Origin: Nanoarchaeota archaeon SCGC AAA011-G17
Lineage (GTDB): Archaea > Nanobdellota > Nanobdellia > SCGC-AAA011-G17
NCBI GenBank assembly: GCA_000402515.1
Contig: AQRL01000038.1
Coordinates: 37,344 to 101,343 of the forward strand
Reading direction: 5' to 3'
DNA: 64,000 nucleotides
The notes under the pieces were generated by a model. It saw nothing but the letters and a program-made list of their open reading frames with translations. It made no database searches and was not told the origin of the DNA. Positions 21,435 through 40,959 of the stretch are shown one piece after another (the stretch's first letter is position 1; each line of letters begins with the position of its first letter). A program made the translations under genes and the position numbers.

Positions 21435-21463
21435 AAACTTTAAGGGAGCAGTATTCTCTTTTA

Positions 21464-21494: not shown

Positions 21495-21507
21495 AAAGAT
21501 TAGTAAA

Positions 21508-21870
21508 TTACTTAATGTTTCTCTGTCTTTCTTCTAACAATAATTTGTCTGCTTTATCAAAATCTGATTTATTAGTTAGAGAATCGGATGTCCTTGTGAG
21601 AATCTTTTCTAATTTAAATATATCTCTTACCACTAATTTATCTACTCTTATCCTATCAATTGTGTTATTTCCATCAAAATTCTGATATCTGGAAACTTTT
21701 CTTCCATTTCTAGTTAATATTTCTTCGGAACCATCTTTTAGTTGAGTGTATTCAATTTTATTTCCAATACGAAAGTACCCTGTGGCTCTTGAGTTTGAAG
21801 TGAAGTTTGGATTATCAATTTTGTAATTATTAAGACTTCTCACACCAAATGTTAAAGCAGAAATCGTCAA
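21508..21870 (-). CDS. Hypothetical membrane-anchored protein (TTG start; the frame is open further upstream through a hydrophobic helix)
   Basis: ORF. The frame upstream reads '...YYQYVGLWVTGIALTISALTFGV'. Confidence 0.35.
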   Translation of the reverse strand: MTISALTFGVRSLNNYKIDNPNFTSNSRATGYFRIGNKIEYTQLKDGSEEILTRNGRKVSRYQNFDGNNTIDRIRVDKLVVRDIFKLEKILTRTSDSLTNKSDFDKADKLLLEERQRNIK

Positions 21871-22056
21871 TGCTATACCTGTAACCCAAAGTCCAACATA
21901 TTGATAATATTTTATACTACTTATTAGTGATTAAACTATATATAAAGGTTTCTTTTTTACACTAATTAAAATTTATACCATAAATCTATTATTTGATTTG
22001 CGTTTATCAAGCGATTTTTTAGAAATGTTTAAATATCTCTGTTTACCAATTTTGGA

Positions 22057-25000: not shown

Positions 25001-27072
25001 AGGTTTCCAGTAATCTTAATAGTTCTTTAAAAGATAATGATAATATTGTTTCACAGCTTTCCAAGGCAAGAAGCAAATTAAGAGAGATAAGCGAGGAGCA
25101 GGCCAGATTAAGCATAAGAGAGGTTAGTTTCAAAGAAGGGGCTTATGGCGACCTTGCTTTAAACAAGATAAAAGAGCTTAGAATGAATGGGGTGTATGGG
25201 ACAATAGCTGAGCTTGGTGAGGTTGACAAGAAGTTTTCTATGGCTTTGGAGGTTGCTGCCGGCTCCAGAATAAAAAGTATTGTTGTTGAGGATGATTCTA
25301 TTGCTGCCAAGTGCATCAAATATTTAAAAGACAATAAACTAGGTGTTGTTACTTTCCTGCCTTTGAACAAAATAAAGGCTCCTGAAGCAATTGATAAAAA
25401 AGTGGGTTATGGCATTGCCCTGAATCTAATAAAATTTGACAACAAATTCAGCAGGGCATTTGGCTATGTTTTTGGAAATACAATTGTTGTTGAGAATATA
25501 AACCAGGCAAGAAATATCGGCATTGGAAAGGACAGGATGGTTACTTTAGATGGGGATTTAGTTGAGGGCTCTGGAGCAATGATTGGTGGTTTCAGAAGGC
25601 AAAAAACAGGATTTAAACAGATGGATTTTACAAAGAACCTTGAAGAGCTTAATAATGAGATTGGAAGATTAAGAGAGATTGTAGATAGTTTAGAGAAGAA
25701 AAAATTAGAGAATGAGGATAATGTTTATCTGTTAAGAAACGATAAGTCTGAATTAGAGGGAGAGATTATAAAACTGGAGAAGAGCTTTGGCGGGGAAGAA
25801 GAGAAAAATGAAAGAGAATCAGCTGTTAAAAATCTAAATAGTGTTGAAAGGGAATTAAATAATGCTGAAGCAAATTACAATAAATTGCTTAAGGATGTTG
25901 AAGAATTAAAAAATAAAAAAAGCTCTTTGAGAGAGAGTGTAAGCAAGATAAGAGGAAACAAAGAAACTGATAAAATAGATTCTGAGTTCAGGCAGATTAG
26001 AGAAGAAAGAATTGTTTTGGAGAATGAATTAAAAAATATTGAGATACAGATAAGAGACGGATTAATTCCAGAAAGAGAAAATATAATCAGGATTATTAAA
26101 GAGCATGAAAAAGAGATTTTAGAATTCCAGAAAGAGAGCGAGGATATCAGTGATAGACTTCTTAAAAATCTTAATCTTTTAAAAGATAAGGAGAGGAATG
26201 AAAAGGAATTTTATTCTAATTTCAAAAATTTATTTAACAAGAGAAACAAATTAAGCGATGAAATACAAAAGAGGGAATTAAAGAGTGTAAGTGAGTATAG
26301 CAGAGTTAGGGCAATTGAGGACAGAACTAACAGCCTGAATATTGATAGGGCAAAGGTATGTGCTGAATTAGAAGGTCTTAATGCTGAATATGAGCAGTTT
26401 AAGGAAATTCAATTAAGAAAAGGAATTGAAATGGATAAATTAAAAGAGGAAATCAGAGATTTTGAAAAGATGATGAATAATCTTGGGAATGTTAATCTAA
26501 GAGCCTTGGAGATTTATGATGAGATTGAAAAGGAGTATAATTCTTTACAGGACAAGGCTGCTACACTAAAATTAGAGAAAGAGGATGTACTAAAGATGAT
26601 TAGTGAGATAGAAAGCAAGAAAGGAGATATGTTTATGAAGAGCTATTCTGAGATAAGCAGGAATTTTGAGAGAATCTTTTCCGAATTGACTGACAAGGGA
26701 ACTGCACATCTTATTTTGGATGATAAGGACAATCCATTTAACGGCGGATTGAAGATTATGGTAAGGATTGCTAAAGGGAAATATCTGGATATCAAGAGCT
26801 TATCCGGGGGAGAAAAGACTCTGACTGCCTTGGCTTTCATATTTGCTATACAGGAATATGACCCTGGGCATTTCTATGTCTTTGATGAGGTTGATGCGGC
26901 TCTGGACAAGACTAATTCCTCTAAATTAGCTAAATTGTTAAGAAAGTACAGCGATAAGGCGCAGTATATTGTTATAAGCCATAATGACAATTTGATTTCT
27001 GAGGCTAATCAGCTATACGGCGTTAGTATGACTGAGAATGGAATGAGCAAGGTTATCAGCTTAAAGGTTTAA
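22057..27072 (+). CDS. smc: Chromosome segregation protein SMC interrupted by an in-frame intein
   Basis: The extein reads 'FKSFAKSTEVPLGKDFSVILGPNGSGK|SNITDAICFVLG' (SMC N-terminal Walker A). It has long coiled coils. C-terminal 'LSGGEKTLTALAFIFAIQ' (signature motif) and 'FYVFDEVDAALD' (Walker B) are present. Confidence 0.85.
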   Translation: MMAVIEKIKMQGFKSFAKSTEVPLGKDFSVILGPNGSGKCLIGSSLVQLNDGSLVEIGKIVEDKLKTNSIKKIDDGFIAEGDDTKIISLNLNNLKNEAKEIKAYVKRESPEYLLRIKTRSGREITSTEYHPLFVFEENRIRAVKADELKIGVKIAVPRQISIGKNNYFYELIDLIDKGDRIYVSYNEEFICILNKLKKSTWKDLANEIGIPLNAIKGLLDKQAINFAYLIKLLKHSKLSNQEIIKLIPYVKSKGIERKYKVPWCNSREFSRFFGYLIAEGRLPESSNQIWFTNGDEEIVSDYANLVAHLFEVKPSINEYKEGCWDVLFYSVPIRQILDKFGMHVGGKTENKELTNLFLKNSSDIELGEFLSGLYSGDGYVGKSSIDIITKSRKLGFNIENILVRLGILFSSRYKIKIATNSGFSGIYREISVYGVENFLKFKKYVNIVHNSKRERLDNLLGVKSNPNLDVIDVNNLIRKVVKEFNIKIKSNKKEFPRLGAYCYKQCLPSRSGINYLIDNLFSNSNEHENLLLLKQIANSDIYWDEIIEIEKIKSNEKWVYDLCIEDNHNFIANNIFVHNSNITDAICFVLGRLSAKSLRADKSANLIYNGGKKGEPAKEAEVSILFDNSNKLFPLNVSKIKITRSVRENGQSKYKINDEIRTRQQVIDLLAAGKINPDGYNIVLQGDITHVTEMPTEERRKVIEDISGIGVYEEKKEKAINELTKVDVKLNEASIVLKERETYLSELKKDRDHAAKYKDLEGNIKRNKATFLHVQINDKQKKREEFEGKINKNQEEADKIRKTVDELREEINKNKEEISSISKEIEEKGEKEQVNLHREIETVKEQKARDQARMEGLGNELNRINERKKQLEIDLREITEKIKQLENERNNLTKRRKIIVEKESIIEKKLGGKRGDNKEERDLDEIEKKLDEKQFILDELNNKKTILLRDKDRLDTQINSLNKLSGGDELKKLKEFKEKFKEVSSNLNSSLKDNDNIVSQLSKARSKLREISEEQARLSIREVSFKEGAYGDLALNKIKELRMNGVYGTIAELGEVDKKFSMALEVAAGSRIKSIVVEDDSIAAKCIKYLKDNKLGVVTFLPLNKIKAPEAIDKKVGYGIALNLIKFDNKFSRAFGYVFGNTIVVENINQARNIGIGKDRMVTLDGDLVEGSGAMIGGFRRQKTGFKQMDFTKNLEELNNEIGRLREIVDSLEKKKLENEDNVYLLRNDKSELEGEIIKLEKSFGGEEEKNERESAVKNLNSVERELNNAEANYNKLLKDVEELKNKKSSLRESVSKIRGNKETDKIDSEFRQIREERIVLENELKNIEIQIRDGLIPERENIIRIIKEHEKEILEFQKESEDISDRLLKNLNLLKDKERNEKEFYSNFKNLFNKRNKLSDEIQKRELKSVSEYSRVRAIEDRTNSLNIDRAKVCAELEGLNAEYEQFKEIQLRKGIEMDKLKEEIRDFEKMMNNLGNVNLRALEIYDEIEKEYNSLQDKAATLKLEKEDVLKMISEIESKKGDMFMKSYSEISRNFERIFSELTDKGTAHLILDDKDNPFNGGLKIMVRIAKGKYLDIKSLSGGEKTLTALAFIFAIQEYDPGHFYVFDEVDAALDKTNSSKLAKLLRKYSDKAQYIVISHNDNLISEANQLYGVSMTENGMSKVISLKV
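22174..23793 (+). mobile_element. Intein (540 aa) with LAGLIDADG homing-endonuclease domain, inserted between Lys and Ser of the SMC Walker-A motif
   Basis: It starts 'CLIGSSLVQLNDG' and ends 'NFIANNIFVHN', followed by Ser+1. DOD motifs are 'FFGYLIAEGRL' and 'FLSGLYSGDGYV'. Confidence 0.85.
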
Positions 27073-28083
27073 TCTTTTTTCTGCTGTATTTAGTATCATA
27101 TGGAGCATTTCTGGATAAGAGTATTTTGCGAATGAAGCAGCTCTTGCAAGATGCCCGTCCCAGCACCATCCAGGATTTGGGTTTATTTCAAGAAGTTTTG
27201 GAATTCCCTTTGAATTTAAACGCCAGTCAAATCTTGCATAGTCTCTGCATTCAAGAGCTTCAAATAAAGTTAAAGAGCCATTAACAATTTTTTTTCTTGT
27301 CTTATAATGAAGGTTTGCTAAAACAGGACGAATGCTATAATATGGTGAGCTCTCATCCCATTTTGCCTCTCTTCCGCAAATATGTGGTGAATCTTTCGGC
27401 AAACCAGAGTAATCTTCTTTTATTAGTGGAAGAAGTTCAAATAAACCTGGATTTCCAATAATACCCAAGGTTATATCATCACCCTGCAAAAATTCTTCAA
27501 TCAGGATTGGATCTTCAGAAACCCGGCAAAGCTCTGAAACTGCCTGCTCGAGCTCTGATAAATTATTAGCAACGCTTTTTTGATTTATATTAAGGCTTCC
27601 ATCACCATAATTTGTTTTGACAATGACTGGGTAATTTTCAATAGATAGTTTTTCAAGATCTTTTCTTTTATTTATCATTACTCCTTCTGGAATCTGGATC
27701 TTACGTTCTTTTGCTATATTTTTTACAAGAGATTTATCATAACAGTTAACCATACACATTTTTCCGGCGCCAGTATAGTGAATACTAAAAAAATCTAACA
27801 TCACTGGGATACGATCTTCTTGTTTGGGGTCGTTCATATAACCCTCATCGCATAAATTAAATGCAAGGTATATTTCTTTTCTTTGAAAGAACAAAGAATA
27901 GAATAAGTTTTCATGATCGTCAAAATAATCAAATTGATAGCCTTCTAGTGTAGCAAGGGCCTCTTTAAGTCTTTCAACAGTCTCTTTGTCATCTTGATCA
28001 AATTTATTTCCCGGCTTGATTGGGTCAGGCTTGGTAGGATCACCTAAGATAACTGCTATTCTTTTTAGGTTTATGTCTGTCAT
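27061..28083 (-). CDS. ATP-grasp family protein (D-Ala-D-Ala ligase-like)
   Basis: 'IAVILGD', 'YPVIVKTNYGDGS' and 'LLEINPNPGW' resemble the Ddl/ATP-grasp core. It is convergent with smc and overlaps it by 12 nt. Confidence 0.5.
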   Translation of the reverse strand: MTDINLKRIAVILGDPTKPDPIKPGNKFDQDDKETVERLKEALATLEGYQFDYFDDHENLFYSLFFQRKEIYLAFNLCDEGYMNDPKQEDRIPVMLDFFSIHYTGAGKMCMVNCYDKSLVKNIAKERKIQIPEGVMINKRKDLEKLSIENYPVIVKTNYGDGSLNINQKSVANNLSELEQAVSELCRVSEDPILIEEFLQGDDITLGIIGNPGLFELLPLIKEDYSGLPKDSPHICGREAKWDESSPYYSIRPVLANLHYKTRKKIVNGSLTLFEALECRDYARFDWRLNSKGIPKLLEINPNPGWCWDGHLARAASFAKYSYPEMLHMILNTAEKRLNL

Positions 28084-28156
28084 TTTTTAGTTAGCTGTTA
28101 AAAAGGAAACTTTTGTTTTTATAATGTTCTCTCTAAGATGTTATAAAAAGAAAAAA

Positions 28157-28924
28157 TTATTGAAGATATATTTCTACTTCATTCCCAGTTAGCATTTCTA
28201 CAATCCCATCTAGATTTCTTGGGTCTACTTCTTTAACAAGATCTGTTCTACCAGGATACACATATTTTGCATCTGCTCCTGCTCCGTATAAAACATCTCC
28301 TTCTTTTATATCAGTTATGGATTTTAATAAAGGGTAACCAGTTATTCCAGCAATTTCTCCTAAATCGAAACCAGAAACTTCTGTTGCAATCCAATAACGT
28401 AATGCAAAATTATCCTGCCATGTTGCAGGTCTAGCATCTCCATACCAATAGGTGGGGAAATTACCAGAACCAATAGGAAATTGTATATCACTTGTCCAAT
28501 ATTGACCTACCCCCAGTTCTGCCCATTTATTATAGTTTCTTTGCAATAATGAATCTCTTCTTTCGATTAAATTAGCATCAACAGTTACTGGTGTTTTTAA
28601 GATAAAATCTACCCCTATCCTATAAACAATATCATTGTATTCAAAAATTCCCTTATAAATATCAAAAGCACCTATCTTTACTGAATCTATTTTTGATGGG
28701 AGGGTTGTATCTGAACCATAAGGTGGAAATGGATATATACCTATTTTTTTAAGAGTTGTTGAATCTAGGGTAAGTATTATTGGGTCATTAGGAATGTTAT
28801 TGGTTGGCAGTTGATTTTCTGTAGAAGGAAGGTTGTTAGGTCCTGTAATACTTAATAAATTGTTTCTATCTTCAGAGCAAGCTAAGGCACTAATAAATGC
28901 TAGTGGAATAATTAATCTTTTCAT
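28157..28924 (-). CDS. Secreted/lipoprotein-like protein (signal peptide with 'LAC' lipobox-like site)
   Basis: N-terminus 'MKRLIIPLAFISALACSED'. No recognisable domain. Confidence 0.4.
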   Translation of the reverse strand: MKRLIIPLAFISALACSEDRNNLLSITGPNNLPSTENQLPTNNIPNDPIILTLDSTTLKKIGIYPFPPYGSDTTLPSKIDSVKIGAFDIYKGIFEYNDIVYRIGVDFILKTPVTVDANLIERRDSLLQRNYNKWAELGVGQYWTSDIQFPIGSGNFPTYWYGDARPATWQDNFALRYWIATEVSGFDLGEIAGITGYPLLKSITDIKEGDVLYGAGADAKYVYPGRTDLVKEVDPRNLDGIVEMLTGNEVEIYLQ

Positions 28925-28936
28925 CTTATTTCTTCC

Positions 28937-29278
28937 TTATCCTTCTCTTTTATCCTTGTAGCTTTTTATTCTATCTTTATATATTATGTATTGATGTATA
29001 AAATCTCTATATAATGGTCTAATAATACTGGATAACATTAATAATGTACTAAAATCAAATTCTGTTTTATTAAAATATTCTGTTGTATTTATTCCTAAGT
29101 AAGAATGTATTGGTCTATCCATCCATGGGTTTGCATCTATTGCACCTGTAAATCCTATCAAACCAATAAGTAATTCAGAACCGGAAACTATTAATTCTAC
29201 ACCATCTCTACCAATTTTTTTGTTCATTATTGTTTTTAATTTATTTTTAATGTTCATTTTTAATATGGTTCCCCCCAA
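28937..29278 (-). CDS. Hypothetical protein
   Basis: ORF in the operon context of the surface cluster. Confidence 0.3.
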   Translation of the reverse strand: MGGTILKMNIKNKLKTIMNKKIGRDGVELIVSGSELLIGLIGFTGAIDANPWMDRPIHSYLGINTTEYFNKTEFDFSTLLMLSSIIRPLYRDFIHQYIIYKDRIKSYKDKREG

Positions 29279-29327
29279 GGTTTATAAGTTTTTTTAAAAA
29301 AAATAAAAAAAAGAAAAAGGGTTTTTC

Positions 29328-30587
29328 TTAGTAATAAGTCTGTCCTGCAGATGGCTCTTCTATTGATTCCTCGCCTTCATCTTCTTTTAACTTTTTGAAA
29401 GCAATGATTAATCCTAGAACAACCAAGATTATTGCTAATACTGCAAATCCTATCTGCAATACACTCTTCAAGCTGCCCATACTGGAAGCCTGAGCTTGAA
29501 CATCTGCTTCTAGATTCAACTCTTTAACAGTCTTGCCGTTTGATTTTATCTTAACAGTGAATGCGTGTTTTCCTGCCTCTGCGTTTGCATTAGCAGTTAA
29601 TTTAACATACATTTCACCTGTCTCGTCAGGCATAATTGTTACAATTGCTGGATCTACTCTTGCAGCTGCGAAAGCACCTACACCGGTTACTTCTGCTGAA
29701 TAAACTGCTTTTTCAGCTTCAAAGTTAGCAAACATCAACTTGTATACAACTTCACTTCCTGGAGCTACTGCTTTAGATGCTGCATCTACACTTATCATTG
29801 AATTTGATAATTCTGCGGATACAATACCTTTTACGTGAAGTGTCTTTGTTTCTTTCAGTGTTGAATGACCGTTGTTATAGGTAACTTCAACTTCAGCCTT
29901 GTAATCTCCTGTCTTGGCATCAGCAGGTATTCTTGCGAATAACTCTACCTGAGCTGAGGATTCATCATCGTTATTAGTATCTTCTGCATTTTGAGTTATT
30001 AACTCAGCTAAATAATCGGATGTTGAAACTCCAAGGTCTGGAATTGTCAAGCTTACTTTGATGTCTTCTTCTTTCTTGTAACCTATGTTCTCAAGCCTTA
30101 CTGAAACAAATAAAGCTGAATCAGCATCTATTGAGCTTGAAGGCCTGAAGATTACGTCTTGGATTGACAATGAATGCCTTGATTCTTTGACTCTTACATC
30201 AAAGTCTTTTTCTTCAGAATCTGTTTTGTCTGATACCTTAACAGTTAGTGTGTAGGTTTCAGAAGCGTCTAAGTCTGATGGAATGTCTAAGGTAAGTGTT
30301 TTCTTGTATGTAACACCTGATTCAACTTCAAATACATCTGATACATCTGAAATTGAGCCGTATTCATAACCATCTATCTCTGCTCTTACTTTAACGTTGT
30401 CTTTGTTTCCAGTAGCTTTAATCCATACTTCTACTGGTAATTGTTCCCCTCTTACAACATCCACTACACTTCCTGTAGCTGAGACGTCGTCTATTTTTAC
30501 ATCTGCTATTCCATAATTACTAGAACTAGCTGATACTGTTGTTAGCACCAGTAATAGTGCAAATAACATTGCTAATATTTTCTTCAT
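29328..30587 (-). CDS. Surface protein: signal peptide, beta-rich repeat domains, C-terminal TM anchor with acidic tail
   Basis: 'MKKILAMLFALLLVLTTVSASS' signal peptide. C-terminal 'IGFAVLAIILVVLGLIIAFKKLKEDEGEE'. Confidence 0.5.
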   Translation of the reverse strand: MKKILAMLFALLLVLTTVSASSSNYGIADVKIDDVSATGSVVDVVRGEQLPVEVWIKATGNKDNVKVRAEIDGYEYGSISDVSDVFEVESGVTYKKTLTLDIPSDLDASETYTLTVKVSDKTDSEEKDFDVRVKESRHSLSIQDVIFRPSSSIDADSALFVSVRLENIGYKKEEDIKVSLTIPDLGVSTSDYLAELITQNAEDTNNDDESSAQVELFARIPADAKTGDYKAEVEVTYNNGHSTLKETKTLHVKGIVSAELSNSMISVDAASKAVAPGSEVVYKLMFANFEAEKAVYSAEVTGVGAFAAARVDPAIVTIMPDETGEMYVKLTANANAEAGKHAFTVKIKSNGKTVKELNLEADVQAQASSMGSLKSVLQIGFAVLAIILVVLGLIIAFKKLKEDEGEESIEEPSAGQTYY

Positions 30588-30646
30588 TTTTTTAACCCCC
30601 CATCAAAGTGGTATTATTATGTTGTTATTTTGTAGTTAATACTCAT

Positions 30647-33073
30647 TTATAAACCTTTCTGTTGGTTCTTTAGGTCAATAAAAAAGTATTTTGTCTCGGT
30701 ATCCTTGTTATTACTTACAGTTACAGCAATTACTTCCTGTTTCCTATCTGTATTCACTGGCAGTTTAAACATGAAGGTCTGTGTCTTTACTTCTTTTGGA
30801 TTTAGGTCAAAGCTTGATGAATATTGTATCTGGTTAAGCTCTGGCAGGGATATTGTTACTCTAACATCCTTTTCCTTTAATCCTGCAAAATTTGCTGCAA
30901 ATACTGTTACTGGGAAATACTCTCCAGGAACTACATTTTTCATGCTGTTAACTATTACTCTTTCGATTCCAATATCATGCTTTGTAGCTCTTAGTGACTT
31001 TGCTTCTTCTGTTACTGTAATCACTGCTGTTTTTTTAGATTCTAAAACACCATCTGTAACTTTGAAAATTAGATTATAGTTACCTAGTGAGCCTGGCACC
31101 CAGGTGAATAACTGATTGTTAAATGCTGCTCCCTCTGGCTTGTTTTCTGCACTGAAGGTTAGTTCATTACTGCCATCATACTGTGCTGAAATTGTGAACT
31201 CTACTTTCTGCCCTAATTTTATTTCCTGTGATGGAATATCATTCAGGCTTAAGTGGAATTCTACTGGCTCTGTGTATTTTGGAAGAACCTTGATTAGTAT
31301 TTCCTGCGTTGCTTCTGCCATGCCATCAGATGCTATTATTATTGAGATGTATTCTCCTGCATCCCCTACTCTTGTCTGCCATTCACCATTCTGGTTTAAT
31401 GGAGAGGTGTAGGAATAGGTTAATTTGTCAAAGTCCAAATCTGTAAATGAATTTCTTGGAACTATCTTTACCAAGTCTCCCTCTGTTACTATAATCGGAC
31501 CTATTGGATTAACTATATGCGGCAATCTGTTAACATCCTTTACTGAGATTATTACTTCCTGCTGGGCATTCAAACTTCCTGCAGATGCCTTGAATGTTAG
31601 TTTAAACTCACATTTTCCGTCATTTCTGCACTGCTTCCCATTTGTGAAATAGTTTGTTATGAATATCTTTATTGTGTCAATAAATGTCCTTTCATGGCTT
31701 ACTGTGTTGTAATCAGGAGTCCAAGCGAATTTATAGCCCAGTAATGGGGCTGGATAATTTAGTACTCCTGGGCCATAGACTGGCTCAAAGGCTGCTCCAC
31801 TTGGCAGGTTTTCTGCAGAATAGTCTATCTTTTGATTTCCATTATAATAAGATGGAGTTACAAAGAAGGTTAATTCTGAGCCTTCATTTACACCCTGATT
31901 AGGTATGAATTTCAAGTCTAGTACTTGTTCTGTTGGAGTTGTTTTTTCGTGAACGGTTAATGGAATTGTCAATACTTGTGATGGATAGTTGCTTATTCCA
32001 TTACATTTTGGATCCTCTGGCATTCCTTCTACTCTTATTGTGTAATCCCCTGCTTTATTTGGTGTCCATGTAAATGAAAACTCTTTTGTATTCTTTAGAT
32101 AGTAATAGGTGTAAGTATAAGCTACTTTCCCGCTTGAATCTTTTACTGTTAGCTTAACTTTATCTTTTACAGGCTCTGTATTCTGGTAGTTATCAATGTA
32201 ATAGGATGATTTATCCCCTGTGATTGTTATTAATTCTCCTACTTCTGCATCAATTGGATTTGATGTTCCTGGTCTATTTAGAATGGTGTAGCAGGCATTT
32301 TGCGGAACATTTTCATGAACCTTGAATTCTGCACTAGCTGTATTTGTTTTTGAAGATGAGCATTTTGAATCAACTACATCTGTTGTTATAAACGCTACAT
32401 AATCATCCTCTAGTGTTGGTGTCCATGTAAATTCAACTGATTGTGAAGAATCCATGAAGATATTTAGTGTCTTTGATTCTTTATATTCATAAGTTGAAAT
32501 ATTGAGATTAGATTTCTTGTAAATCCATAGTGTTACTTTTGTTTCAGCTGAATAGAAATCCCTGTACTCTGCTGGTATGAAAGCAGGTGTATTGCTATTT
32601 GAATGTAATGCTGAATAGGTATCTGCATCTAGTGAAGCTGGAACTTTGATTATTAATGGGATGTTCGGTCTTACATCATTTAGAACTTCAATATGGTCAA
32701 TAGGTGCTGAGCACTGGGCTTTCTTCTCTAGAGTAACTAGTTCAGTTGATTCACCATTTCCATAAACACTCTTGAATGCTTCTTTTCCAAGATATCCCTG
32801 CTTAAAGGCATAAACAGCATATCCGTATTGTGTTGGCAGATTTGTTGGGTACCATACTTTTATATCATAATTTGGATCATTGGCATTTGTATTCCCATTT
32901 GCATGAGGCGTTACAGAACTACAAGATGCATCATTACAAGTATAGGCTAGAAAATTAACATTGTCTAATTTATTCCCATCTTTATTCTGAAATTCATAAG
33001 TCATAATTACCTGAGCACTAGCTAGACTTATTAAAAATACAAATAAGATAGGGATTAAAAGTAATTTTTTCAT
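30647..33073 (-). CDS. Large secreted adhesin-like protein (808 aa) with multiple Ig/cadherin-like repeat modules
   Basis: Signal peptide 'MKKLLLIPILFVFLISLASAQ'. Repeated '...FTWTP...' beta-sandwich-like modules. No TM. Confidence 0.5.
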   Translation of the reverse strand: MKKLLLIPILFVFLISLASAQVIMTYEFQNKDGNKLDNVNFLAYTCNDASCSSVTPHANGNTNANDPNYDIKVWYPTNLPTQYGYAVYAFKQGYLGKEAFKSVYGNGESTELVTLEKKAQCSAPIDHIEVLNDVRPNIPLIIKVPASLDADTYSALHSNSNTPAFIPAEYRDFYSAETKVTLWIYKKSNLNISTYEYKESKTLNIFMDSSQSVEFTWTPTLEDDYVAFITTDVVDSKCSSSKTNTASAEFKVHENVPQNACYTILNRPGTSNPIDAEVGELITITGDKSSYYIDNYQNTEPVKDKVKLTVKDSSGKVAYTYTYYYLKNTKEFSFTWTPNKAGDYTIRVEGMPEDPKCNGISNYPSQVLTIPLTVHEKTTPTEQVLDLKFIPNQGVNEGSELTFFVTPSYYNGNQKIDYSAENLPSGAAFEPVYGPGVLNYPAPLLGYKFAWTPDYNTVSHERTFIDTIKIFITNYFTNGKQCRNDGKCEFKLTFKASAGSLNAQQEVIISVKDVNRLPHIVNPIGPIIVTEGDLVKIVPRNSFTDLDFDKLTYSYTSPLNQNGEWQTRVGDAGEYISIIIASDGMAEATQEILIKVLPKYTEPVEFHLSLNDIPSQEIKLGQKVEFTISAQYDGSNELTFSAENKPEGAAFNNQLFTWVPGSLGNYNLIFKVTDGVLESKKTAVITVTEEAKSLRATKHDIGIERVIVNSMKNVVPGEYFPVTVFAANFAGLKEKDVRVTISLPELNQIQYSSSFDLNPKEVKTQTFMFKLPVNTDRKQEVIAVTVSNNKDTETKYFFIDLKNQQKGL

Positions 33074-33082
33074 TTGAACCCC

Positions 33083-33883: not shown

Positions 33884-33898
33884 TTTAATCCTCCATGA

Positions 33899-34948
33899 TT
33901 ATTTTTTTTGATAACTTTGCATTTTTCTCCAACCACTTGGAATATTTATTTTTCCAATTTTCTGCTTTATTTCTTCTTTGCTTGGTCCTGTGTATGTAAC
34001 ATTCTGTCTTGCTAATTCATCAAGCCCAATTACTTTACCATTTTGTGATTTTACACCATATAATATTCCATCTTTTGCATTTACTTTGTATAATGTTCTT
34101 ACGTCTTCTCCTAAAATGTCTCCTCTATATGTATCATATTTTCCATTAAAGAATTCATCTATTGAACTTTTTGGTACATAACTACTATCTCCAAGTGCTT
34201 TTATTCTTAGGTAGTCACTAATGTTCTTTGTAGGACCTGTTGCATAATTCACAAATTCTTTGTTATCTAATGATGGTTTCCATGGTAATTGTTTTGCACT
34301 GAAACTTCTTTGTCCATCGATTATATAGTCTATTAATACGTTAAATCCTGGATAATTTAGTTCATGATTTGCTTTTATAGTTAGTATTGTTTCTCTTTCT
34401 GTTATTTGTGCTTCTCTTGTTGTTTTTTGTGCATGAGCAATAGCTGCATTTTTTTCCTTTGTAGCTTTTTCAGCTTCTTTGACTTTTTCTTCTTTTTCTT
34501 TAACTGCAACGTTCTTTCCCATTTCTGCAATATTCTTTGCTTCTCTTGCTTTCTTAGCCAAATCAAAAGTTATTTGGGCTGATTGTGAAGCATATTGCGC
34601 TGATTTAAGGCTTGATTGTGCTATGTCTTCTTGATTTTTTGTAGACTTCCAAGAATATGCTGTGTAGATTGGAATCCCAATTAATGCTGAGAATAATGCA
34701 CCCCTTAGTATTTGTGTTCCATAATTAACAATCTTTCCTCTTATTGTATGGTCTGTTTCTGTAACATGTACTTCTCCATTGTCTTTTTGTTCTGTTGGAT
34801 TATCACTTCTTTCCAAACCAAATTTAAGTACTTCTTTTGCTGGTATTTGTCCATTTCCTACTCTCTTTTGAAAACCTTTTTTTGGATCTTTGAAATCCAT
34901 TCCTCTTTCACTTTGGTTTCCTTCTGATTCTGATTTTTCATTTGCCAT
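33899..34948 (-). CDS. Single-pass membrane protein with cytoplasmic N-terminus and extracellular coiled-coil/globular domain
   Basis: TM 'LRGALFSALIGIPIYTAY'. K/E/A-rich coiled-coil region. 2-nt gap to the upstream ATPase gene. Confidence 0.4.
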   Translation of the reverse strand: MANEKSESEGNQSERGMDFKDPKKGFQKRVGNGQIPAKEVLKFGLERSDNPTEQKDNGEVHVTETDHTIRGKIVNYGTQILRGALFSALIGIPIYTAYSWKSTKNQEDIAQSSLKSAQYASQSAQITFDLAKKAREAKNIAEMGKNVAVKEKEEKVKEAEKATKEKNAAIAHAQKTTREAQITERETILTIKANHELNYPGFNVLIDYIIDGQRSFSAKQLPWKPSLDNKEFVNYATGPTKNISDYLRIKALGDSSYVPKSSIDEFFNGKYDTYRGDILGEDVRTLYKVNAKDGILYGVKSQNGKVIGLDELARQNVTYTGPSKEEIKQKIGKINIPSGWRKMQSYQKK

Positions 34949-34949
34949 T

Positions 34950-35939
34950 TTATTTACTCTCCCTTTCTTGCTTTTGATAGTTTATAGCATGTGATATGAT
35001 ATCTGCAACAAGATTTTGTGTTGTTGATTTAAACTGCCTTATCCCATCTTCATTTAGAGACATTATGTTTCCAGGACCTGTTGCTTTTTCTATTTCTGGT
35101 CTTTCTTGAATGAAATAAACATATTCCCCAAAGAAATTTTCTTCTGGTAAGAGTGGTTTTAGTCTTTCAAACTCTCTTTTTGCTTTATCTATTTTTAGTT
35201 CATCAAGCGGTCTTGCTAGAATTCTTTTCAGTGTGCTGCTTTCTTCTTCTATTCTATTTATTATTAGTAATTTCTGTTTTTTTGTTTCTTCATAGTAATC
35301 TCTTTCCTTTGTTAGTTCTATTATTTCTTTCACTATTTTTGGGATAGTGCTCATTGATGCATCCCCTCTTTGACTTACTATTACCCTGTTATCTGTTTCT
35401 ATTAATGGCTCTAAACCCATTTGTTTGGAGGCATAGTTCGGAAAGTCATAAATAACCACCCCATAACTGCTATTCTTTAAACCTTCTATAATTTTCATTT
35501 GTGCATTTAATGTTTTTTTATCGTTATCAATGGTTATCCCATTTATCCAATCATCATTTCTTATTAAAAAATAAGATAAGTTAGGACAGCTAATACTTTG
35601 AGAATATAATGATGGGTCGATACCTTTTTTTGTGACAAAGGACCTGATTCTATTTTTTTCTTTTATATCCTGGAAAACTATTGAAACAAGATTTGGATTA
35701 TTGATCCAATTAAATTCTACTGCTGCTGTTTTTAATCCTGATTTTGCAGATAAGTAGGCAAGCCATGCTGCTAGTGTTGTTTTTCCTACCCCCCCTTTTG
35801 CAGATGAAATACCCACTTGAATTGGTCTGTATAATCCTTGTTCTTTATACCAAATAGTTCCATCAGTGTTTGGATCAGAATTTCTTTGCTGTGATAACAT
35901 ATGTTGTAATACTTTTGTTCTTACATTATAGTCTGGCAT
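34950..35939 (-). CDS. ParA/MinD-family P-loop ATPase (deviant Walker A)
   Basis: 'GISSAKGGVGKTTLAAWLAYLSAKSG' is a deviant Walker A of the SIMIBI ParA/MinD class, with a ~45-aa N-terminal extension. Confidence 0.65.
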   Translation of the reverse strand: MPDYNVRTKVLQHMLSQQRNSDPNTDGTIWYKEQGLYRPIQVGISSAKGGVGKTTLAAWLAYLSAKSGLKTAAVEFNWINNPNLVSIVFQDIKEKNRIRSFVTKKGIDPSLYSQSISCPNLSYFLIRNDDWINGITIDNDKKTLNAQMKIIEGLKNSSYGVVIYDFPNYASKQMGLEPLIETDNRVIVSQRGDASMSTIPKIVKEIIELTKERDYYEETKKQKLLIINRIEEESSTLKRILARPLDELKIDKAKREFERLKPLLPEENFFGEYVYFIQERPEIEKATGPGNIMSLNEDGIRQFKSTTQNLVADIISHAINYQKQERESK

Positions 35940-36014
35940 ATCATAACCCCCAACACTATTTTTAAAATGTTATCATTATATAAAGGTTTCGGTAAAGTTA
36001 CTATTTTATAATGA

Positions 36015-36668
36015 TTAACGTATTGGTCTCATGCTTCTCCAATTTTTCTTTTTTGGAGCTGACAGCTTAAATTCTGTAGAATCTTTTTTTGTTTCAGTTG
36101 ATATAGAATCTTTTTCGGCATAGGATAAATCTGAGCTAAATATTAAAATCTGGGGATACCAGACATAAGCATCTTTGCCATTAAAACTTTTATCTGTCGG
36201 CACTTTTTCTTTTGTAAAATAGGCTATTGCTGTTTTTTCTTTTAGTAGTGAACGAAGCGTTGAAAATTCTGCTGGCTCTAACATGTTATCACTGAAACAG
36301 ATATCAAAGCAATCAAGTAATACAGGATCAGTAGTAATAATGTTTTTCAGAGTATCTTCCAATGCCCTTCTTTTTTCATTTAAGGTATCCTCTCCAAAGA
36401 GATTATTTAAGATTGGAGTTAATACTTCTCCCTTTATTCTCTTTTTAACTGATTCTATGCATACTTCTGAACTGTCTGAATAGTCATTCAATGGAAGGAT
36501 TAGATATTGTGCTTTGTATATTTTTCCTATCCTGTCTGTTTTGTAAGGATATGAGATAGTATCATTAGATGCTGGATCCGGCCTTAACCCATAATTTCTT
36601 GAGTCTGCATTTAATCTTGTTAGTAAAAATGGGATGGATGCAATCGTCAATAAATTTCTTAGTTTCAT
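36015..36668 (-). CDS. Secreted hypothetical protein
   Basis: Signal peptide 'MKLRNLLTIASIPFLLTRLNA'. Confidence 0.4.
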   Translation of the reverse strand: MKLRNLLTIASIPFLLTRLNADSRNYGLRPDPASNDTISYPYKTDRIGKIYKAQYLILPLNDYSDSSEVCIESVKKRIKGEVLTPILNNLFGEDTLNEKRRALEDTLKNIITTDPVLLDCFDICFSDNMLEPAEFSTLRSLLKEKTAIAYFTKEKVPTDKSFNGKDAYVWYPQILIFSSDLSYAEKDSISTETKKDSTEFKLSAPKKKNWRSMRPIR

Positions 36669-36715
36669 AATAATTTTTACTTTAAAGTAGTTATATAAAT
36701 CTTTTGATAGAAATT

Positions 36716-36828
36716 TGGGAACGTGGGGATTTGAACCCCAATCAACTGGTGTCTTCTAAATCACAGCCGAAGCTCATCACTCCAAACACTGGAGCCAGTT
36801 ACACTAAACCAGGTTGTGCTACGCTCCC
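36716..36828 (-). tRNA. tRNA-Trp (anticodon CCA) containing a 38-nt intron at the canonical 37/38 position
   Basis: Reverse complement folds as a cloverleaf. Acceptor GGGAGCG/CGTTCCC. D-arm GCAC..GTGT with GG in the loop. Anticodon stem ACTGG/CCAGT. Loop CUCCAG|A. T-arm TGGGG-TTCAAAT-CCCCA. Discriminator A73. No encoded CCA. Confidence 0.7.
36751..36788 (-). other. tRNA intron (bulge-helix-bulge type)
   Basis: The intron TGTTTGGAGTGATGAGCTTCGGCTGTGATTTAGAAGAC pairs TGGAG with the anticodon-loop CUCCA. It contains a box-C-like GTGATGA. Confidence 0.6.
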
Positions 36829-36864
36829 TATAATTAAAAATTGAAGATTTTGAGTATTTAAATA

Positions 36865-37386
36865 TTACTTGTATATTATATATAGGTAGAGCTCTTCAAA
36901 AAAGAACTTTTGTTTTTCCAATTCTTTGAATTTCAGATTATTTTTTTTAATTAAAGAATTTATTTTCTTCTTATTTGTTAGTGAGGAGAAGATTAAGAGG
37001 ATTTTTCCATTCTTGTTCAGATGAGAATTAACTTGATTAAGGAATCTTTCAATTAGCTCATATCCTTTTTTTCCTCCATCCAGTGCCTTGTCTTTTACTA
37101 ATTGATCATTTGGAAGATAGGGGGGATTAAAGATAATTAAATCAAACTTTCCTTTTACATTTGAAAATAGATCTGATAGCTTGAATTTTATATTTTTTCT
37201 TTTAATATTTTTTTTACAATAATCAATTGCTTCTTTATCAATATCAACAGCAAGAACTTTTTTGCAGTAGTTTGATGCTTCGAGTGCAAGAATTCCTGTA
37301 CCTGTTCCTATTTCCAAGCATGAATCTGATGGATAGTTTTTGATATGTTTTTCAATAAGATAAGAATCTTCTTCCGGCTCGTACAT
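36865..37386 (-). CDS. HemK/Mtq2-family protein (release factor glutamine) methyltransferase
   Basis: 'CLEIGTGTGILALE' (motif I), 'LAVDID', and 'NPPY' in 'IIFNPPYLP'. ~170 aa, as in archaeal Mtq2. Confidence 0.7.
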   Translation of the reverse strand: MYEPEEDSYLIEKHIKNYPSDSCLEIGTGTGILALEASNYCKKVLAVDIDKEAIDYCKKNIKRKNIKFKLSDLFSNVKGKFDLIIFNPPYLPNDQLVKDKALDGGKKGYELIERFLNQVNSHLNKNGKILLIFSSLTNKKKINSLIKKNNLKFKELEKQKFFFEELYLYIIYK

Positions 37387-37452
37387 GAAAAAATAGAAAT
37401 CTTTTTATATTATTAAGTTATCTAAATTTTACAAATTTATGGGGGTGCATAA

Positions 37453-37932
37453 ATGAAAAAAGGATTAGTTCTAGGATTAATTGCAGTGATGCTGTTAGCA
37501 ACAGTGAGTGTAGTATTTGCAGCTGGTGGTTTTGATAAATTTGGGTATAACTATCAGGCAAGAGTTTTTGTAGGGGCTGCTGATGGTGTAGATAGAGTAC
37601 TCGATGGAAAAGTTTGGGGGGACTCAACATATGCCAAAGACCATTTAGTTATGAAATGGAGCAAGGGATGGGATGATGCAAGATTCCATGGAGCAGCTTG
37701 GACACCAGAGGCATGGGAAGACAATGAATGGAATGGAGCAGTTCCTGGTGGTTCAGGAGAGGTCTGGCATTATAAAATAATATGGGTTGGACCACAATTA
37801 GAAAATAGTCCCTACTGGAGAGAAGGCGGATACCCTGTCTGGGGTCAGTTTGAGGTAATTATGGACCAAGGAACTTCGCAGGGAGAACATTTATGGTTTA
37901 CTCATGCAATTCCAACAGGATACGGCAAATAA
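37453..37932 (+). CDS. Secreted Trp-rich hypothetical protein
   Basis: Signal peptide 'MKKGLVLGLIAVMLLATVSVVFAAGG'. Confidence 0.4.
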   Translation: MKKGLVLGLIAVMLLATVSVVFAAGGFDKFGYNYQARVFVGAADGVDRVLDGKVWGDSTYAKDHLVMKWSKGWDDARFHGAAWTPEAWEDNEWNGAVPGGSGEVWHYKIIWVGPQLENSPYWREGGYPVWGQFEVIMDQGTSQGEHLWFTHAIPTGYGK

Positions 37933-37954
37933 ACTTTTTTTTATTTTTTCTTTT

Positions 37955-38647
37955 TTAGAATCCTTCTGCTTTTTCTGCCTGCTCTATCTCTTCCTGGGAT
38001 ATTGCACAGCCATTAAGCTTCAAGCCCCATAGAATCCCATCCACAAGCTCATGCTTAAGATTATAATTTGTCAAATGGTCTTTCTGCACCAGATTTTTTA
38101 ATATTCCAAGAGAGTAAGCCACTAAACCAAGTTCAGATGAGCGAATTATATTAACGTTTATCTCTTTTTTCAGCTCTTTTAAATTTTCTTGGTTGATTGT
38201 TATTTTTGTGTGCAGTTTTCTTTCAAAAAGGTTTTTCAGCTCATTTGGATTTTCTATTATCATTCTTATTGTTCTCTCATCAACTACATAGGTTGCTTTC
38301 AATAGATTTGCTAATGCCAGTGATTCCACTTCTGCCGGGTCTACTAACTTAATAAAATGGTTTTCTGCTTTGAAGAGATTGTTAATGAGATTTAATAAAT
38401 TCTGTGTCTGCTTTTCCAACTGCTGGCCATAAATCTCTAAGGTGTTATCCAGAATTAATTGGTGGATTTGGAGTGCTTCTAATTTGAATTTCTTTGACTG
38501 TATTGGCTTGTCTATTATTTCTTTTTTTACTTCATTTGTTATAAAGAACTGCCCATTGAATCTGTGCTTTAGCTCTGGGAGCAAGTAGAGCAGATTATTT
38601 AGAGATAAACTGATTATTGTTGAGCTATCAAATACCATGGATTTCAT
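37955..38647 (-). CDS. Hypothetical protein
   Basis: ORF only. Confidence 0.35.
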   Translation of the reverse strand: MKSMVFDSSTIISLSLNNLLYLLPELKHRFNGQFFITNEVKKEIIDKPIQSKKFKLEALQIHQLILDNTLEIYGQQLEKQTQNLLNLINNLFKAENHFIKLVDPAEVESLALANLLKATYVVDERTIRMIIENPNELKNLFERKLHTKITINQENLKELKKEINVNIIRSSELGLVAYSLGILKNLVQKDHLTNYNLKHELVDGILWGLKLNGCAISQEEIEQAEKAEGF

Positions 38648-38681
38648 AAAATTGATAATACAATTTAGTATATATTAATTT

Positions 38682-39242
38682 CTATTCAAATAAAGATTTA
38701 GCGAATTCAATTCTCTTTTTTATGTCTTTTGTAATCCCCTTTTCCGATATTCCTGTCTGCCCTGTGTATTTCTGCAATTCCCATGGAGAAACTTTTAATG
38801 TAGATGCTGCCTGGCCAAGAGAAATTCCATGCTCTGTAATTCTTGAGGCCTTTGCTATTTTTGATTCTTCAAATACTTCCTTTAATGCATCCTGTATTTT
38901 TGGGTCCAGAAGATTAATTGATTTTTGAATTTTGGTCAAAGAATTTGTGTACTGGTCAACTTCATCGTTTTCTAAATATGATTTTGCCATACTAAGGTCT
39001 TCCAATATAGTTGAGTAGAATTTATCCCAGCCTTTTTTTTCAAAATAATCTGTTCTTCCTAATATCTTGAATAATGAGTAAGTCATTACTGCTATATCTC
39101 TTGACAGATTGTCCTGAAAGATTGTCAGAGAGTGGATTGTCTGATTGCTCAATTCTTTTATCTGAACCAGATCTTTTTTTTTTACTGCCTCTACCAACTG
39201 AGAGATAATATCCAATAGATGATCCTTGAAACCTGACTGCAT
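38682..39242 (-). CDS. Hypothetical protein
   Basis: ORF only. Confidence 0.35.
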   Translation of the reverse strand: MQSGFKDHLLDIISQLVEAVKKKDLVQIKELSNQTIHSLTIFQDNLSRDIAVMTYSLFKILGRTDYFEKKGWDKFYSTILEDLSMAKSYLENDEVDQYTNSLTKIQKSINLLDPKIQDALKEVFEESKIAKASRITEHGISLGQAASTLKVSPWELQKYTGQTGISEKGITKDIKKRIEFAKSLFE

Positions 39243-39338
39243 AATATTAATTTATTCTTTCAATATAAATAGTTTGTTCTAATTAGTTTCAATTTTAAAG
39301 TAGTAACAAATAGAAAGGTTTATAAAATATCTCTTACT

Positions 39339-40142
39339 ATGAAAATTATGGCTATACAAATTCCAGTTGGAAGAGAAGTATTAAATGAAGAAGAAGTTTA
39401 TGTGCGCAGAGGCAGTGGAAAATATTATGCTTATCCCAAGAAGATAGAATCCTTTACAACTAATGCTATTATTTCTCCTGAAGATTGTGCTTTGGTGCAG
39501 GAAGGAAATCAAGCAAGGTATGCTATATCTATGAAGCAAATGTATGGTGGCTCTAATTTCATTTCTGTGAGTGTAGAAGGCTTGAATAATGGATTGTTTA
39601 TCCCAACGCTAGCTATTTTTATGCCTCATTATATAAATGTTAATGAAGCCAGTCAGGGAAAGAATGTTTTGTATGACGCTAATGGAGAGGTGATAGAGAA
39701 AGAAAGATTACATGAATATGCAGCTAAATTAAATCGTGGTTGCTGGGTTTGGATAAATGCCATGTTTCCAAAAGAAAAGACTAAAGATACTGGATTTAAA
39801 GGATTAGACTTAGCTATTATTAATGGATTTGAAGAAGAGCAGCCGATATTTAAAAGAGAGCCATTAGAAAGATGCTTGGAAGATGACAGCTGGGCAGATT
39901 TGGAATCATTAAACAGACAAGGGTTTCCAACAGAAAAAGCAAAAATAGGAAAATATGAGCCAGGCAAAACAATTTATTTTTTGGCACCTTTTTTAAGAGA
40001 AGATGATCCTGAAGTTGGATTTGTCGCGTGGTTCTTCGCCAATTCCGGCAGGGCGGTCCTCAATTGCTTCTGGAATCCTCAGTACTCGTATGCCGGCCTC
40101 GGGGTATTTTTGTGTGCCGAAGGCACCGCGCAAAAAAGTTAA
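39339..40142 (+). CDS. Hypothetical protein; the last ~45 codons lie in an anomalously GC-rich segment
   Basis: ORF. The local GC spike at 39990..40140 is visible by eye. Confidence 0.35.
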   Translation: MKIMAIQIPVGREVLNEEEVYVRRGSGKYYAYPKKIESFTTNAIISPEDCALVQEGNQARYAISMKQMYGGSNFISVSVEGLNNGLFIPTLAIFMPHYINVNEASQGKNVLYDANGEVIEKERLHEYAAKLNRGCWVWINAMFPKEKTKDTGFKGLDLAIINGFEEEQPIFKREPLERCLEDDSWADLESLNRQGFPTEKAKIGKYEPGKTIYFLAPFLREDDPEVGFVAWFFANSGRAVLNCFWNPQYSYAGLGVFLCAEGTAQKS

Positions 40143-40197
40143 TACCTCATGCTGAGAGTTATGTACAGATCAAAAATCAAAAAATAAATATTTTACT

Positions 40198-40923
40198 ATG
40201 AGAAGAAGACTTTTTTGTATTGGATTTGGTGCATTTGCTTATTCCTTGTTAAATGCAGAAGATAGGAAATTTTCTGATCTAAATGACAGTGAGAAAAAGG
40301 ATGTTTTATTTGATATTGTCAAGGAGATGGATGGAAAATATACATTTCCTGTTCCTATGGCTTCTGGTTTAGAAAAGAAACAGGCATTATCTGTGAATAA
40401 ATCTTTGTTTGAATTTGGTGCGGGAAGACCGTATGGCCAAAAACATAAGGGCATTGATGTATATGGCTTTGGCAAAGATGTTGTTTATTTTGCTGATGGT
40501 AAAATTGAGGAAGCAGGAAGGAACATCAACAGCTTTGACCATGGAAATATTGTTGTTGTGAATCATGGAGATATTAATGGATATAATTTATGGAGCTATT
40601 ATCTACATATTGGCGGGATTAATGGAATTAGGGAGGGAGATAGTGTAAAAATTGGAGATGCTTTTGCCAAGATTGATTGTACTGGGATAAGCCCTGATAG
40701 TAGAAGATTGTATAACCCAGGCTCTAAAGATTGCAAGAGAGTAGCACATTTACACTTCCAGATAAGAATAGGGGACATGCATGTCAATCCGAATTATTTT
40801 TTTCCAGAATATTCAGAAAACTCTTTACCAAACTTAAAGAGATGGAGATTGGCTATAAAGGCTAGCTCTTTAGAGGATAATATTGCTGGATTCAAAGGCA
40901 AACAGAGTCGCGGCTCTTTCTGA
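40198..40923 (+). CDS. Secreted M23-family (LytM-like) metallopeptidase
   Basis: Signal peptide, 'KHKGIDVYG' (HxxxD) and 'AHLHFQI' (HxH) zinc motifs. Confidence 0.65.
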   Translation: MRRRLFCIGFGAFAYSLLNAEDRKFSDLNDSEKKDVLFDIVKEMDGKYTFPVPMASGLEKKQALSVNKSLFEFGAGRPYGQKHKGIDVYGFGKDVVYFADGKIEEAGRNINSFDHGNIVVVNHGDINGYNLWSYYLHIGGINGIREGDSVKIGDAFAKIDCTGISPDSRRLYNPGSKDCKRVAHLHFQIRIGDMHVNPNYFFPEYSENSLPNLKRWRLAIKASSLEDNIAGFKGKQSRGSF

Positions 40924-40959
40924 GGTTATATTTATAAACCTTTTTTAATTTAAGTATTT

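Follow-up and report, generated by a model that had tools for sequence, protein, structure and literature searches.

The window analysed here is a 64-kb stretch (64,000 nucleotides) of contig AQRL01000038.1 of Nanoarchaeota archaeon SCGC AAA011-G17, and two of its genes are the subject of this work. The gene at 27061..28083 on the minus strand, whose stop end overlaps the 3′ end of the SMC gene by 12 bp, encodes a stand-alone ATP-grasp ligase of 340 aa that resembles D-Ala-D-Ala ligases (Ddl; Pfam PF07478, Dala_Dala_lig_C). The gene at 40198..40923 on the plus strand encodes a predicted exported M23 (LytM-type) zinc metallo-endopeptidase of 241 aa (Pfam PF01551), and immediately upstream of it, at 39339..40142 (+), lies the gene of a 267-aa protein without a signal peptide that is gained and lost together with the M23 gene. 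An earlier sequence-only reading had taken ligase and peptidase for bacterial-type cell-wall enzymes in an archaeon, serving to attack or remodel a bacterial or host wall or taking part in pseudomurein-like chemistry. We consider it probable, although well short of assured, that the ligase belongs to a non-wall family of the methylated-amide type, that the M23 protein is an exported muralytic enzyme and that the two genes are unrelated.

The same contiguous window carries the proteasome-alpha/SBDS/Rrp4/Rrp41/Rrp42 exosome superoperon, in addition to several TrmB regulators, an XPD helicase and a PGF-pre-PGF surface protein, in agreement with the archaeal host assumed at the outset; judged by these genes, the window is archaeal beyond reasonable doubt. 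Its G+C content is ~33%, metagenome-assembled genomes (MAGs) assigned to 'Nanoarchaeota' and 'Pacearchaeota' supplied the named relatives of both proteins, and the metagenome matches to the M23 protein all originated from the 0.1-µm fraction of Hainich groundwater. Based on gene content, relatives and these metagenome matches, the host appears to be a small-genome groundwater organism for which DPANN-type is a fair description. For comparison with the window we used the contigs of relatives designated L001 (from a closely related strain), L002, L003, L009, L012 and L097.

The ATP-grasp ligase and its family

The ATP-grasp core resembling D-Ala-D-Ala ligases that had been noted in the product of 27061..28083 was recovered, with a PF07478 match of 63 bits (E = 3.2e-17; cut-off, 24 bits) and with D-Ala-D-Ala and D-Ala-D-Lac ligases as the closest solved relatives (3r23 at 8e-19, VanA at 3e-12). 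The NCBIfam models for Ddl and Van ligases all matched the protein as well, but with at most 99 bits against cut-offs of 243-775, and for the curated Ddl models NF002378 (99.1 bits versus 243) and TIGR01205 (91.9 bits versus 245.65) the shortfall exceeded 140 bits. These scores below the cut-offs, together with the replacement of D-Ala-specific residues described below, rule out that the ligase is a canonical Ddl. The suggested pseudomurein-like chemistry fared no better. The pseudomurein-cluster ATP-grasp protein of Methanobacteriales and Methanopyrales (NF053643; OG0001014 in PMC11915815) is likewise archaeal and distantly Ddl-like, but the window ligase reached only 31.8 bits against the cut-off of 500 of this model, over ~100 residues only, and has no Mur-like or MraY-like neighbours; the score rules out an assignment as pseudomurein ATP-grasp.

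We further explored the active site by aligning the family with E. coli DdlB (alignment A3), the DdlB sequence showing the expected residue at each functional position. These positions are K97, K144, E180, K215, R255, D257, E270 and N272 for catalysis, as well as E15, H63, S150, Y216, S281 and L282 for the binding of D-Ala and for specificity. The equivalents of the eight catalytic residues were invariant across the family alignment and are K117, K156, E196, K241, R284, D286, E299 and N301 in the window ligase. Since these are the ATP, Mg and transition-state residues, the acyl-phosphate chemistry of ATP-grasp enzymes appears to be intact. The D-Ala-positioning residues, in contrast, are replaced by others that are themselves invariant in the family (H63 by C78, Y216 by W242, S281 by G310 and L282 by H311), and the segment GGxSxExEVS containing E15 of DdlB corresponds to LGDPxKPD followed by a 12-residue insert; the position of S150 is ambiguous and variable in the family. 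With the substrate pocket rebuilt in this way, D-alanine is very probably not a substrate, and the enzyme would apply a Ddl-like mechanism to other substrates. Compared with DdlB and VanA (EC 6.3.2.4; PDB 2dln, 3r23, 1e4e), the window ligase has the same central and C-terminal ATP-grasp domains and the conserved catalytic set, and hence presumably the same ligation chemistry via an acyl phosphate; however, it shares only 24-30% identity with them, its N-terminal domain is rebuilt and it has no dcw/mur context. The mechanism we propose is that of an ATP-dependent carboxylate-amine ligase, which would use the Ddl machinery, with its K/R/D/E/N set and two Mg2+ ions, and proceed via an acyl phosphate.

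Five cysteines of the window ligase (C78, C110, C114, C279 and C307) were invariant or nearly so across the family (alignments A2 and A3), and C78 and C307 are at positions that line the substrate pocket in DdlB. They may bind a metal, or their presence may be related to a substrate with a thiol group.

In a database search we found ~1000 homologues of the ligase, nearly all at ~50% identity and from both domains of life, including Atribacterota, Desulfobacterales, Sedimentisphaerales and other bacteria as well as Asgard archaea, Nitrososphaerota, Caldarchaeales and Pacearchaeota; many of them also possess methyltransferase Pfam domains. A scan of one genome per species located the family in at least 589 GTDB species, again in both domains. 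Among the carriers are Methanosarcina, Methanoculleus, Methanolobus, Asgard archaea and Nitrososphaeria, none of which is a known murein maker. The window ligase shows the family motifs LGDPxKPD, NLCDEG, EAKW, CRDYARFDWR and NPNPGWCWDGH.

The methyltransferase domains are part of a fusion. In the best 80 GTDB loci, the ligase forms the C-terminal 340 aa of an open reading frame (ORF) of 620-730 aa, which in 79 of them starts with a class I S-adenosylmethionine (SAM) methyltransferase, the 80th ORF being cut by the contig end. The 79 methyltransferase halves are, at the median, 65% identical to the Odinarchaeota copy and resemble models of glycine/sarcosine N-methyltransferases, daptide N-methyltransferases and UbiE/ArsM-type enzymes. 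One Nitrososphaerota genome has the two halves as separate, adjacent and overlapping genes. In bifunctional proteins of ~640-700 aa, such as those of Methanosarcina spelaei MC-15 (NZ_LMVP01000223.1), Promethearchaeota (CP070805.1), Pirellulales and Desulfobacterales, the ligase domain is 48-53% identical to the window ligase over its full length and has all family motifs, whereas the window ligase and other DPANN copies are devoid of the whole methyltransferase half.

Neither mur/dcw genes nor any conserved neighbour gene accompanied the family in the ~90 loci inspected, and the sole recurrent synteny, with trmD/rpsP/ffh, was confined to planctomycetes. Neighbours of the B12/radical-SAM kind were considered as conserved partners and rejected, as they are not homologous to each other; they constitute an unproven lead. 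A Peptidase_U32 gene adjoins the stand-alone ligase in two DPANN loci, in either order (L003 6711..9014; L097 7001..9226), and was found beside none of the 80 fused copies and not in the window. The Peptidase_U32 family includes Fe-S RNA and quinone hydroxylases, and the adjacency may serve as a weak lead to the pathway of the ligase.

Considering architecture, active-site residues and gene context together, the ligase is best described as a member of a widespread, uncharacterised ligase family and not as a cell-wall enzyme. In nearly all other organisms it is the C-terminal half of a ~650-aa protein whose N-terminal class I SAM methyltransferase resembles amine N-methyltransferases, and the obligate methyltransferase partner there points to a methylated amide-linked small molecule, made in the cytoplasm, as the most likely product of the family. 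The alternative to wall enzymes named at the outset had been deep archaeal clades with non-wall functions, for example ATP-grasp enzymes of the RimK type. The ligase conforms to this in spirit, but its family is shared by both domains and is not of the RimK type, and no such placement emerged for the peptidase.

The DPANN lineages carry the ligase half only. Stand-alone forms of ~340 aa comprise the window ligase, its relatives of 89% and 81% identity, two proteins of Pacearchaeota and several that are encoded on other archaeal contigs, and the reading frame is full length and intact in all three members of the window clade and in several other archaeal lineages. Using six methyltransferase halves as tblastn queries, we detected no homologue of this half in the window or in the flanks of L001-L003. 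A rough neighbour-joining tree, calculated without support values, separates the stand-alone forms from the fused forms, among which Bacteria and Archaea are interleaved. Of 118 positions with a conservation of at least 95% in the fused proteins, 18-25 are changed in the stand-alone forms (21 in the window ligase, including P157T and G165N in the glycine-rich loop), and since many of these deviations are shared among the stand-alone forms, they indicate a distinct subfamily and not decay.

The M23 peptidase and its strain-variable cassette

The assignment of the product of 40198..40923 as an M23 peptidase with an HxxxD...HxH signature held up, with a match to PF01551 (Peptidase_M23) at E = 3.8e-12 and 46.7 bits against a cut-off of 28.7. 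The protein consists of a putative twin-arginine-like signal (residues 1-20), a clade-specific N-terminal helical segment (~25-65), the M23 domain (~72-200) and a conserved C-terminal tail that ends in GSF. None of the residues H83-x3-D87, H137 and H184-x-H186, which correspond to the zinc ligands and catalytic histidines of LytM, is missing or varies within the clade. C161 and C179, equally invariant, enclose a clade-specific insert of 18 residues before the HLH motif. An AlphaFold (AF2) model computed from 11 sequences reached a predicted local distance difference test score (pLDDT) of 85.9 and a predicted template-modelling score (pTM) of 0.84, and Foldseek matched it with probability 1.00 to LytM, lysostaphin, StM23 and ShyA; further matches included Csd3 and the LytM domains of EnvC and DipM, and of the 40 PDB matches at E ≤ 1e-3 nearly all were M23/LytM domains. 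With this active site and predicted fold, the protein is, in our assessment, a catalytically competent zinc endopeptidase. The staphylococcal glycyl-glycine endopeptidases LytM, lysostaphin and StM23 share its fold (TM 0.67-0.74, target-normalised) and have identical HxxxD, H and HxH zinc/catalytic residues, but their sequences are only 23-25% identical to it, and the window protein differs from them in lacking an SH3b or other wall-binding domain and in possessing the Cys-flanked insert and the clade-specific N- and C-terminal segments.

The sequence is also suggestive of the signal peptide noted earlier. The N-terminus, MRRRLFCIGFGAFAYSLLNA/ED, has a basic n-region with a twin-arginine-like motif, a 14-residue hydrophobic stretch and an A-x-A-like end, and the close relatives display the twin-arginine motif [NT]RRxFL, while the distant ones have lipobox-like signals. 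The protein is thus probably exported by a twin-arginine translocation (Tat)-type signal, and an extracellular location fits the RRxFL or lipobox signals and the two invariant cysteines of the clade. A signal-sequence ending '…LNA(E/D)' is common to three predicted secreted proteins of the window, encoded at 36015..36668 (LTRLNAD), 40198..40923 (SLLNAED) and 45901..46653 (AFNLNAEE), and may mark where a signal peptidase typically cuts in this lineage.

An exhaustive HMMER scan of 1.84 billion cluster representatives yielded 12 clusters at 121 bits or more, followed by generic M23 proteins at 50 bits or less, and because of this drop no recent bacterial donor of the clade can be identified. All members with an identifiable genome are archaeal, among them a 378-aa protein encoded directly beside an archaeal 16S-tRNA-23S rRNA operon on a 638-kb contig (L009 2907..9137). 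Pattern scans of the GTDB species genomes and of IMG/VR gave no match to the clade, and the scan of JGI/ENA metagenomes returned only four short contigs, from Hainich groundwater. A viral origin is not supported, since tblastn against phage genomes and Foldseek against viral structures led only to generic M23 lysins with at most 32% identity.

In L001, the gene of a 186-aa protein and the XPD gene are 50 bp apart; in the window, this interval is filled by the 267-aa gene and the M23 gene, an arrangement also present in L012. The genes flanking the site are 88-93% identical in L001, and other parts of this contig reach values of up to 99-100%. The 267-aa protein of the window is 77% and its M23 protein 74% identical to the L012 counterparts, compared with 94% for the flanking 186-aa protein and 86% for XPD. 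The ratio of nonsynonymous to synonymous substitution rates (dN/dS) was 0.16-0.28 for M23 and 0.45 for the 267-aa partner versus 0.04-0.07 for adjacent genes. We found no direct or inverted repeats bounding the cassette, only AT-rich chance matches. The 267-aa partner matched no model of Pfam, NCBIfam or PHROG, and its single-sequence AF2 model was uninformative (pLDDT 34). As gauged from these comparisons, M23 and the 267-aa gene are a strain-variable two-gene accessory cassette that evolves faster than its neighbours.

A patchy distribution and faster evolution have also been reported for weaponised archaeal peptidoglycan hydrolases (PGHs), including a Tat-exported haloarchaeal M23 enzyme that kills bacteria; M23 homologues in Nanoarchaeia were noted in the same 2025 study (PMC12352652), and murein-degrading genes of Woesearchaeota have been read as predatory tools (PMC9723730). 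According to this published work, genes of this kind are abundant in Nanoarchaeota. This parallel in spread and evolution favours an extracellular muralytic role. The window protein resembles the archaeal M23 enzyme Woldo of Halogranum salarium in being patchy across strains and in its putative Tat-type signal. Unlike Woldo, a modular protein that combines M23 with two PG_binding_1 domains and groups with enzymes of Bacillota (PMC12352652), it is single-domain and has no close bacterial relatives. The 'modular PGH' screen of that study would have missed it, as it is single-domain and has no recognised wall-binding domain.

Weighing of the alternative readings

The wall-enzyme reading thus survives for one of the two proteins. 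For the M23 protein, which is intact, wall attack is the best available reading and has already been published for such enzymes (PMC12352652, PMC9723730); for the ligase, with its scores below the cut-offs, replaced residues and methyltransferase-fused family, it does not hold. A common role of both in a single cell-wall system, be it the cell's own murein- or pseudomurein-like polymer or a toolkit against a host wall, might be suggested by their Pfam domains, which are both named after wall enzymes, and by their location within a 14-kb stretch that also encodes several surface proteins. However, the genes are on opposite strands and 12 kb apart, with at least 12 unrelated genes (S-layer-like, ParA-like and others) between them, their phylogenetic distributions are unrelated, and L001 keeps the ligase without having the peptidase, from which we conclude that the two genes are unrelated and independently inherited. 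Moreover, no locus of the ligase family that was inspected had a wall context, the pseudomurein model scored far below its cut-off, and no Mur ligase, MraY, MurG, penicillin-binding protein or alanine racemase was found among the 58 larger ORFs of the window that were scanned, which makes a joint system highly improbable. We also consider it very unlikely that the ligase is a true but divergent D-Ala-D-Ala (or D-Ala-D-X) ligase supplying a dipeptide for a different use. Ddl and Van ligases are indeed its closest solved and curated relatives and the ATP, Mg and transition-state residues are all conserved, but the residues that position D-Ala1 and D-Ala2 (E15, H63, Y216, S281 and L282 of DdlB) gave way to family-invariant ones, the scores are less than half of the curated cut-offs, the obligate methyltransferase fusion seen elsewhere has no counterpart in Ddl biology, and the sole enzyme dependent on pyridoxal phosphate among the scanned ORFs is threonine-dehydratase-like, not an alanine racemase. 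That the stand-alone ligase is a decaying, functionless remnant of the bifunctional enzyme appears unlikely, if less so than the two preceding possibilities. Its dN/dS of 0.49 against the nearest strain, compared with 0.04-0.07 for nearby genes, could mean relaxed constraint, and the deviations at conserved positions, P157T and G165N among them, and the lack of a methyltransferase partner in the window point the same way. Against this stand the intact, full-length frames across the clade and in several other archaeal lineages, the retention of all catalytic residues, a dN/dS that is still below 1, and deviations common to independent stand-alone lineages, which imply subfamily-specific constraint; we read the value of 0.49 as somewhat relaxed constraint or recent recombination.

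For the peptidase, our preferred reading is that of a secreted zinc endopeptidase which most likely acts on bacterial peptidoglycan, to go by its homologues. It would cut the peptide cross-links or stems of the polymer outside the cell, for attack, feeding or attachment, and would not be a remodeller of the archaeon's own wall. Several points weigh against the combined reading of the two genes that we favour. The M23 protein is at most 26% identical to characterised M23 enzymes, a Pfam scan detected no wall-binding domain in it but PF01551 only, the clade-specific insert adjoins the active site, so that the substrate could differ, and a Tat component was not seen in the window. For the ligase family, the methylated amide-linked product is deduced from domain architecture only, our literature searches found no paper on the fused or stand-alone forms and no substrate for any member, and the searches for methyltransferase and mur genes cover the 64-kb window of the host genome, with copies elsewhere being possible. 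In addition, the known DPANN hosts, including those of cultured representatives, are mostly archaea, which lack murein, and M23 enzymes such as LasA and beta-lytic protease also cut proteins. The M23 protein might hence act on a non-murein substrate, for example surface proteins (S-layer or other) of the cell itself or of an archaeal host, whose envelope it could breach where the two cells touch. With a binding domain missing and the insert being clade-specific, this is a serious rival, as further suggested by the separate N- and C-terminal extensions and by the deep separation of the clade from bacterial M23 proteins (the score cliff from 121 to 50 bits). We nevertheless regard it as somewhat unlikely, because nearly all characterised structural neighbours are peptidoglycan hydrolases or their regulators and the sole tested archaeal M23 protein was bactericidal (PMC12352652). 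Some of the top structural matches, the LytM domains of EnvC, DipM and SpoIIQ, would be compatible with a non-catalytic LytM-type regulator or adaptor like EnvC, NlpD or SpoIIQ. Those proteins, however, have no Zn ligands, in contrast to the clade-invariant H83, D87, H137, H184 and H186 here, and we know of no amidase partners for such a regulator in archaea, so that this possibility is about as improbable as any we considered. A more far-reaching scheme, which we put forward only tentatively and hold to be doubtful, combines both genes differently: the ligase family would represent a widespread, uncharacterised two-step pathway, in which an ATP-grasp ligase and an amine N-methyltransferase, as a rule parts of one protein, together produce a methylated metabolite with an amide linkage, with DPANN archaea keeping only the ligase half and perhaps using a methylated precursor supplied by a host, while M23 and the 267-aa protein would form an effector cassette that is specific to DPANN and varies among strains.

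Strain mosaic of the window and significance of the two genes

Across 18555..41515, the window is a mosaic relative to L001, in which near-identical tracts alternate with divergent or replaced ones. The tracts 18555..21493, 25200..26700 and 29285..31400 have 99-100% nucleotide identity, the ATP-grasp gene has 91-95%, and in the 5′ part of the gene for an 808-aa surface protein identity falls to 59-87%. The product of 36015..36668 is only 53% identical, and the ParA-like gene at 34950..35939 has no tblastn match in L001, which possesses a ParA-like gene at that place. The pattern looks like recombination focused on surface and secretome genes. The segment most divergent from L001 spans about 33.9-37.9 kb, and at its edge we observed a 113-nt tRNA match (Rfam; 36716..36828, minus strand) that was not called by ARAGORN, its length and the missing call suggesting an intron; the region may be a hotspot of recombination or integration. 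Between the ATP-grasp gene and the gene of a 419-aa S-layer-like protein, the window has a two-gene insertion that is absent from L001 (28157..29278, minus strand). Its products, both without a Pfam match, are a membrane protein of 113 aa and a protein of 255 aa whose N-terminus (…ISALAC) is lipobox-like. Another strain-variable gene, at 37453..37932 (+), encodes a 159-aa protein with a signal peptide that is predicted to be secreted and has no Pfam or PHROG match; in L001, the flanking methyltransferase and 230-aa genes abut.

The SMC gene (22057..27072, plus strand) contains an insertion of ~530 aa in the Walker A P-loop (GPNGSGK|C…VHN|SNITDAI), which we read as an intein; the L001 orthologue of 1130 aa has no such insertion and shares 98% identity with the remainder. 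An intein with a LAGLIDADG homing endonuclease (Pfam Intein_splicing and LAGLIDADG_3) is also present in the 1432-aa Lhr-type helicase encoded at 11560..15858 (minus strand). Further downstream, a protein with a DAC (DisA_N) diadenylate-cyclase domain (47067..47627, plus strand) suggests c-di-AMP signalling in a small archaeal genome. The 1025-aa product of 55710..58787 (minus strand) combines a dockerin type I domain with Cu-binding motifs of the MopE type; this large protein probably functions at the cell surface or in adhesion.

Automatic pipelines label members of the ligase family "D-alanine--D-alanine ligase" in many archaeal and bacterial MAGs, and a reader may mistake this name for a sign of murein or pseudomurein chemistry. 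Being large, highly conserved and unstudied, and occurring in cultured organisms such as Methanosarcina spelaei, the family is a sensible choice for function discovery; the methyltransferase-ligase chemistry is the most attractive follow-up. With the M23 gene, the set of archaeal peptidoglycan hydrolases described in recent work is extended by a non-modular archaeal clade, and although the idea of archaeal enzymes cutting bacterial walls has already been published, the clade itself is new. Its presence and absence among closely related groundwater strains fit an interaction or arms-race gene, and the cassette should be useful for addressing the question of whether some Nanoarchaeota-type DPANN archaea interact with bacteria.

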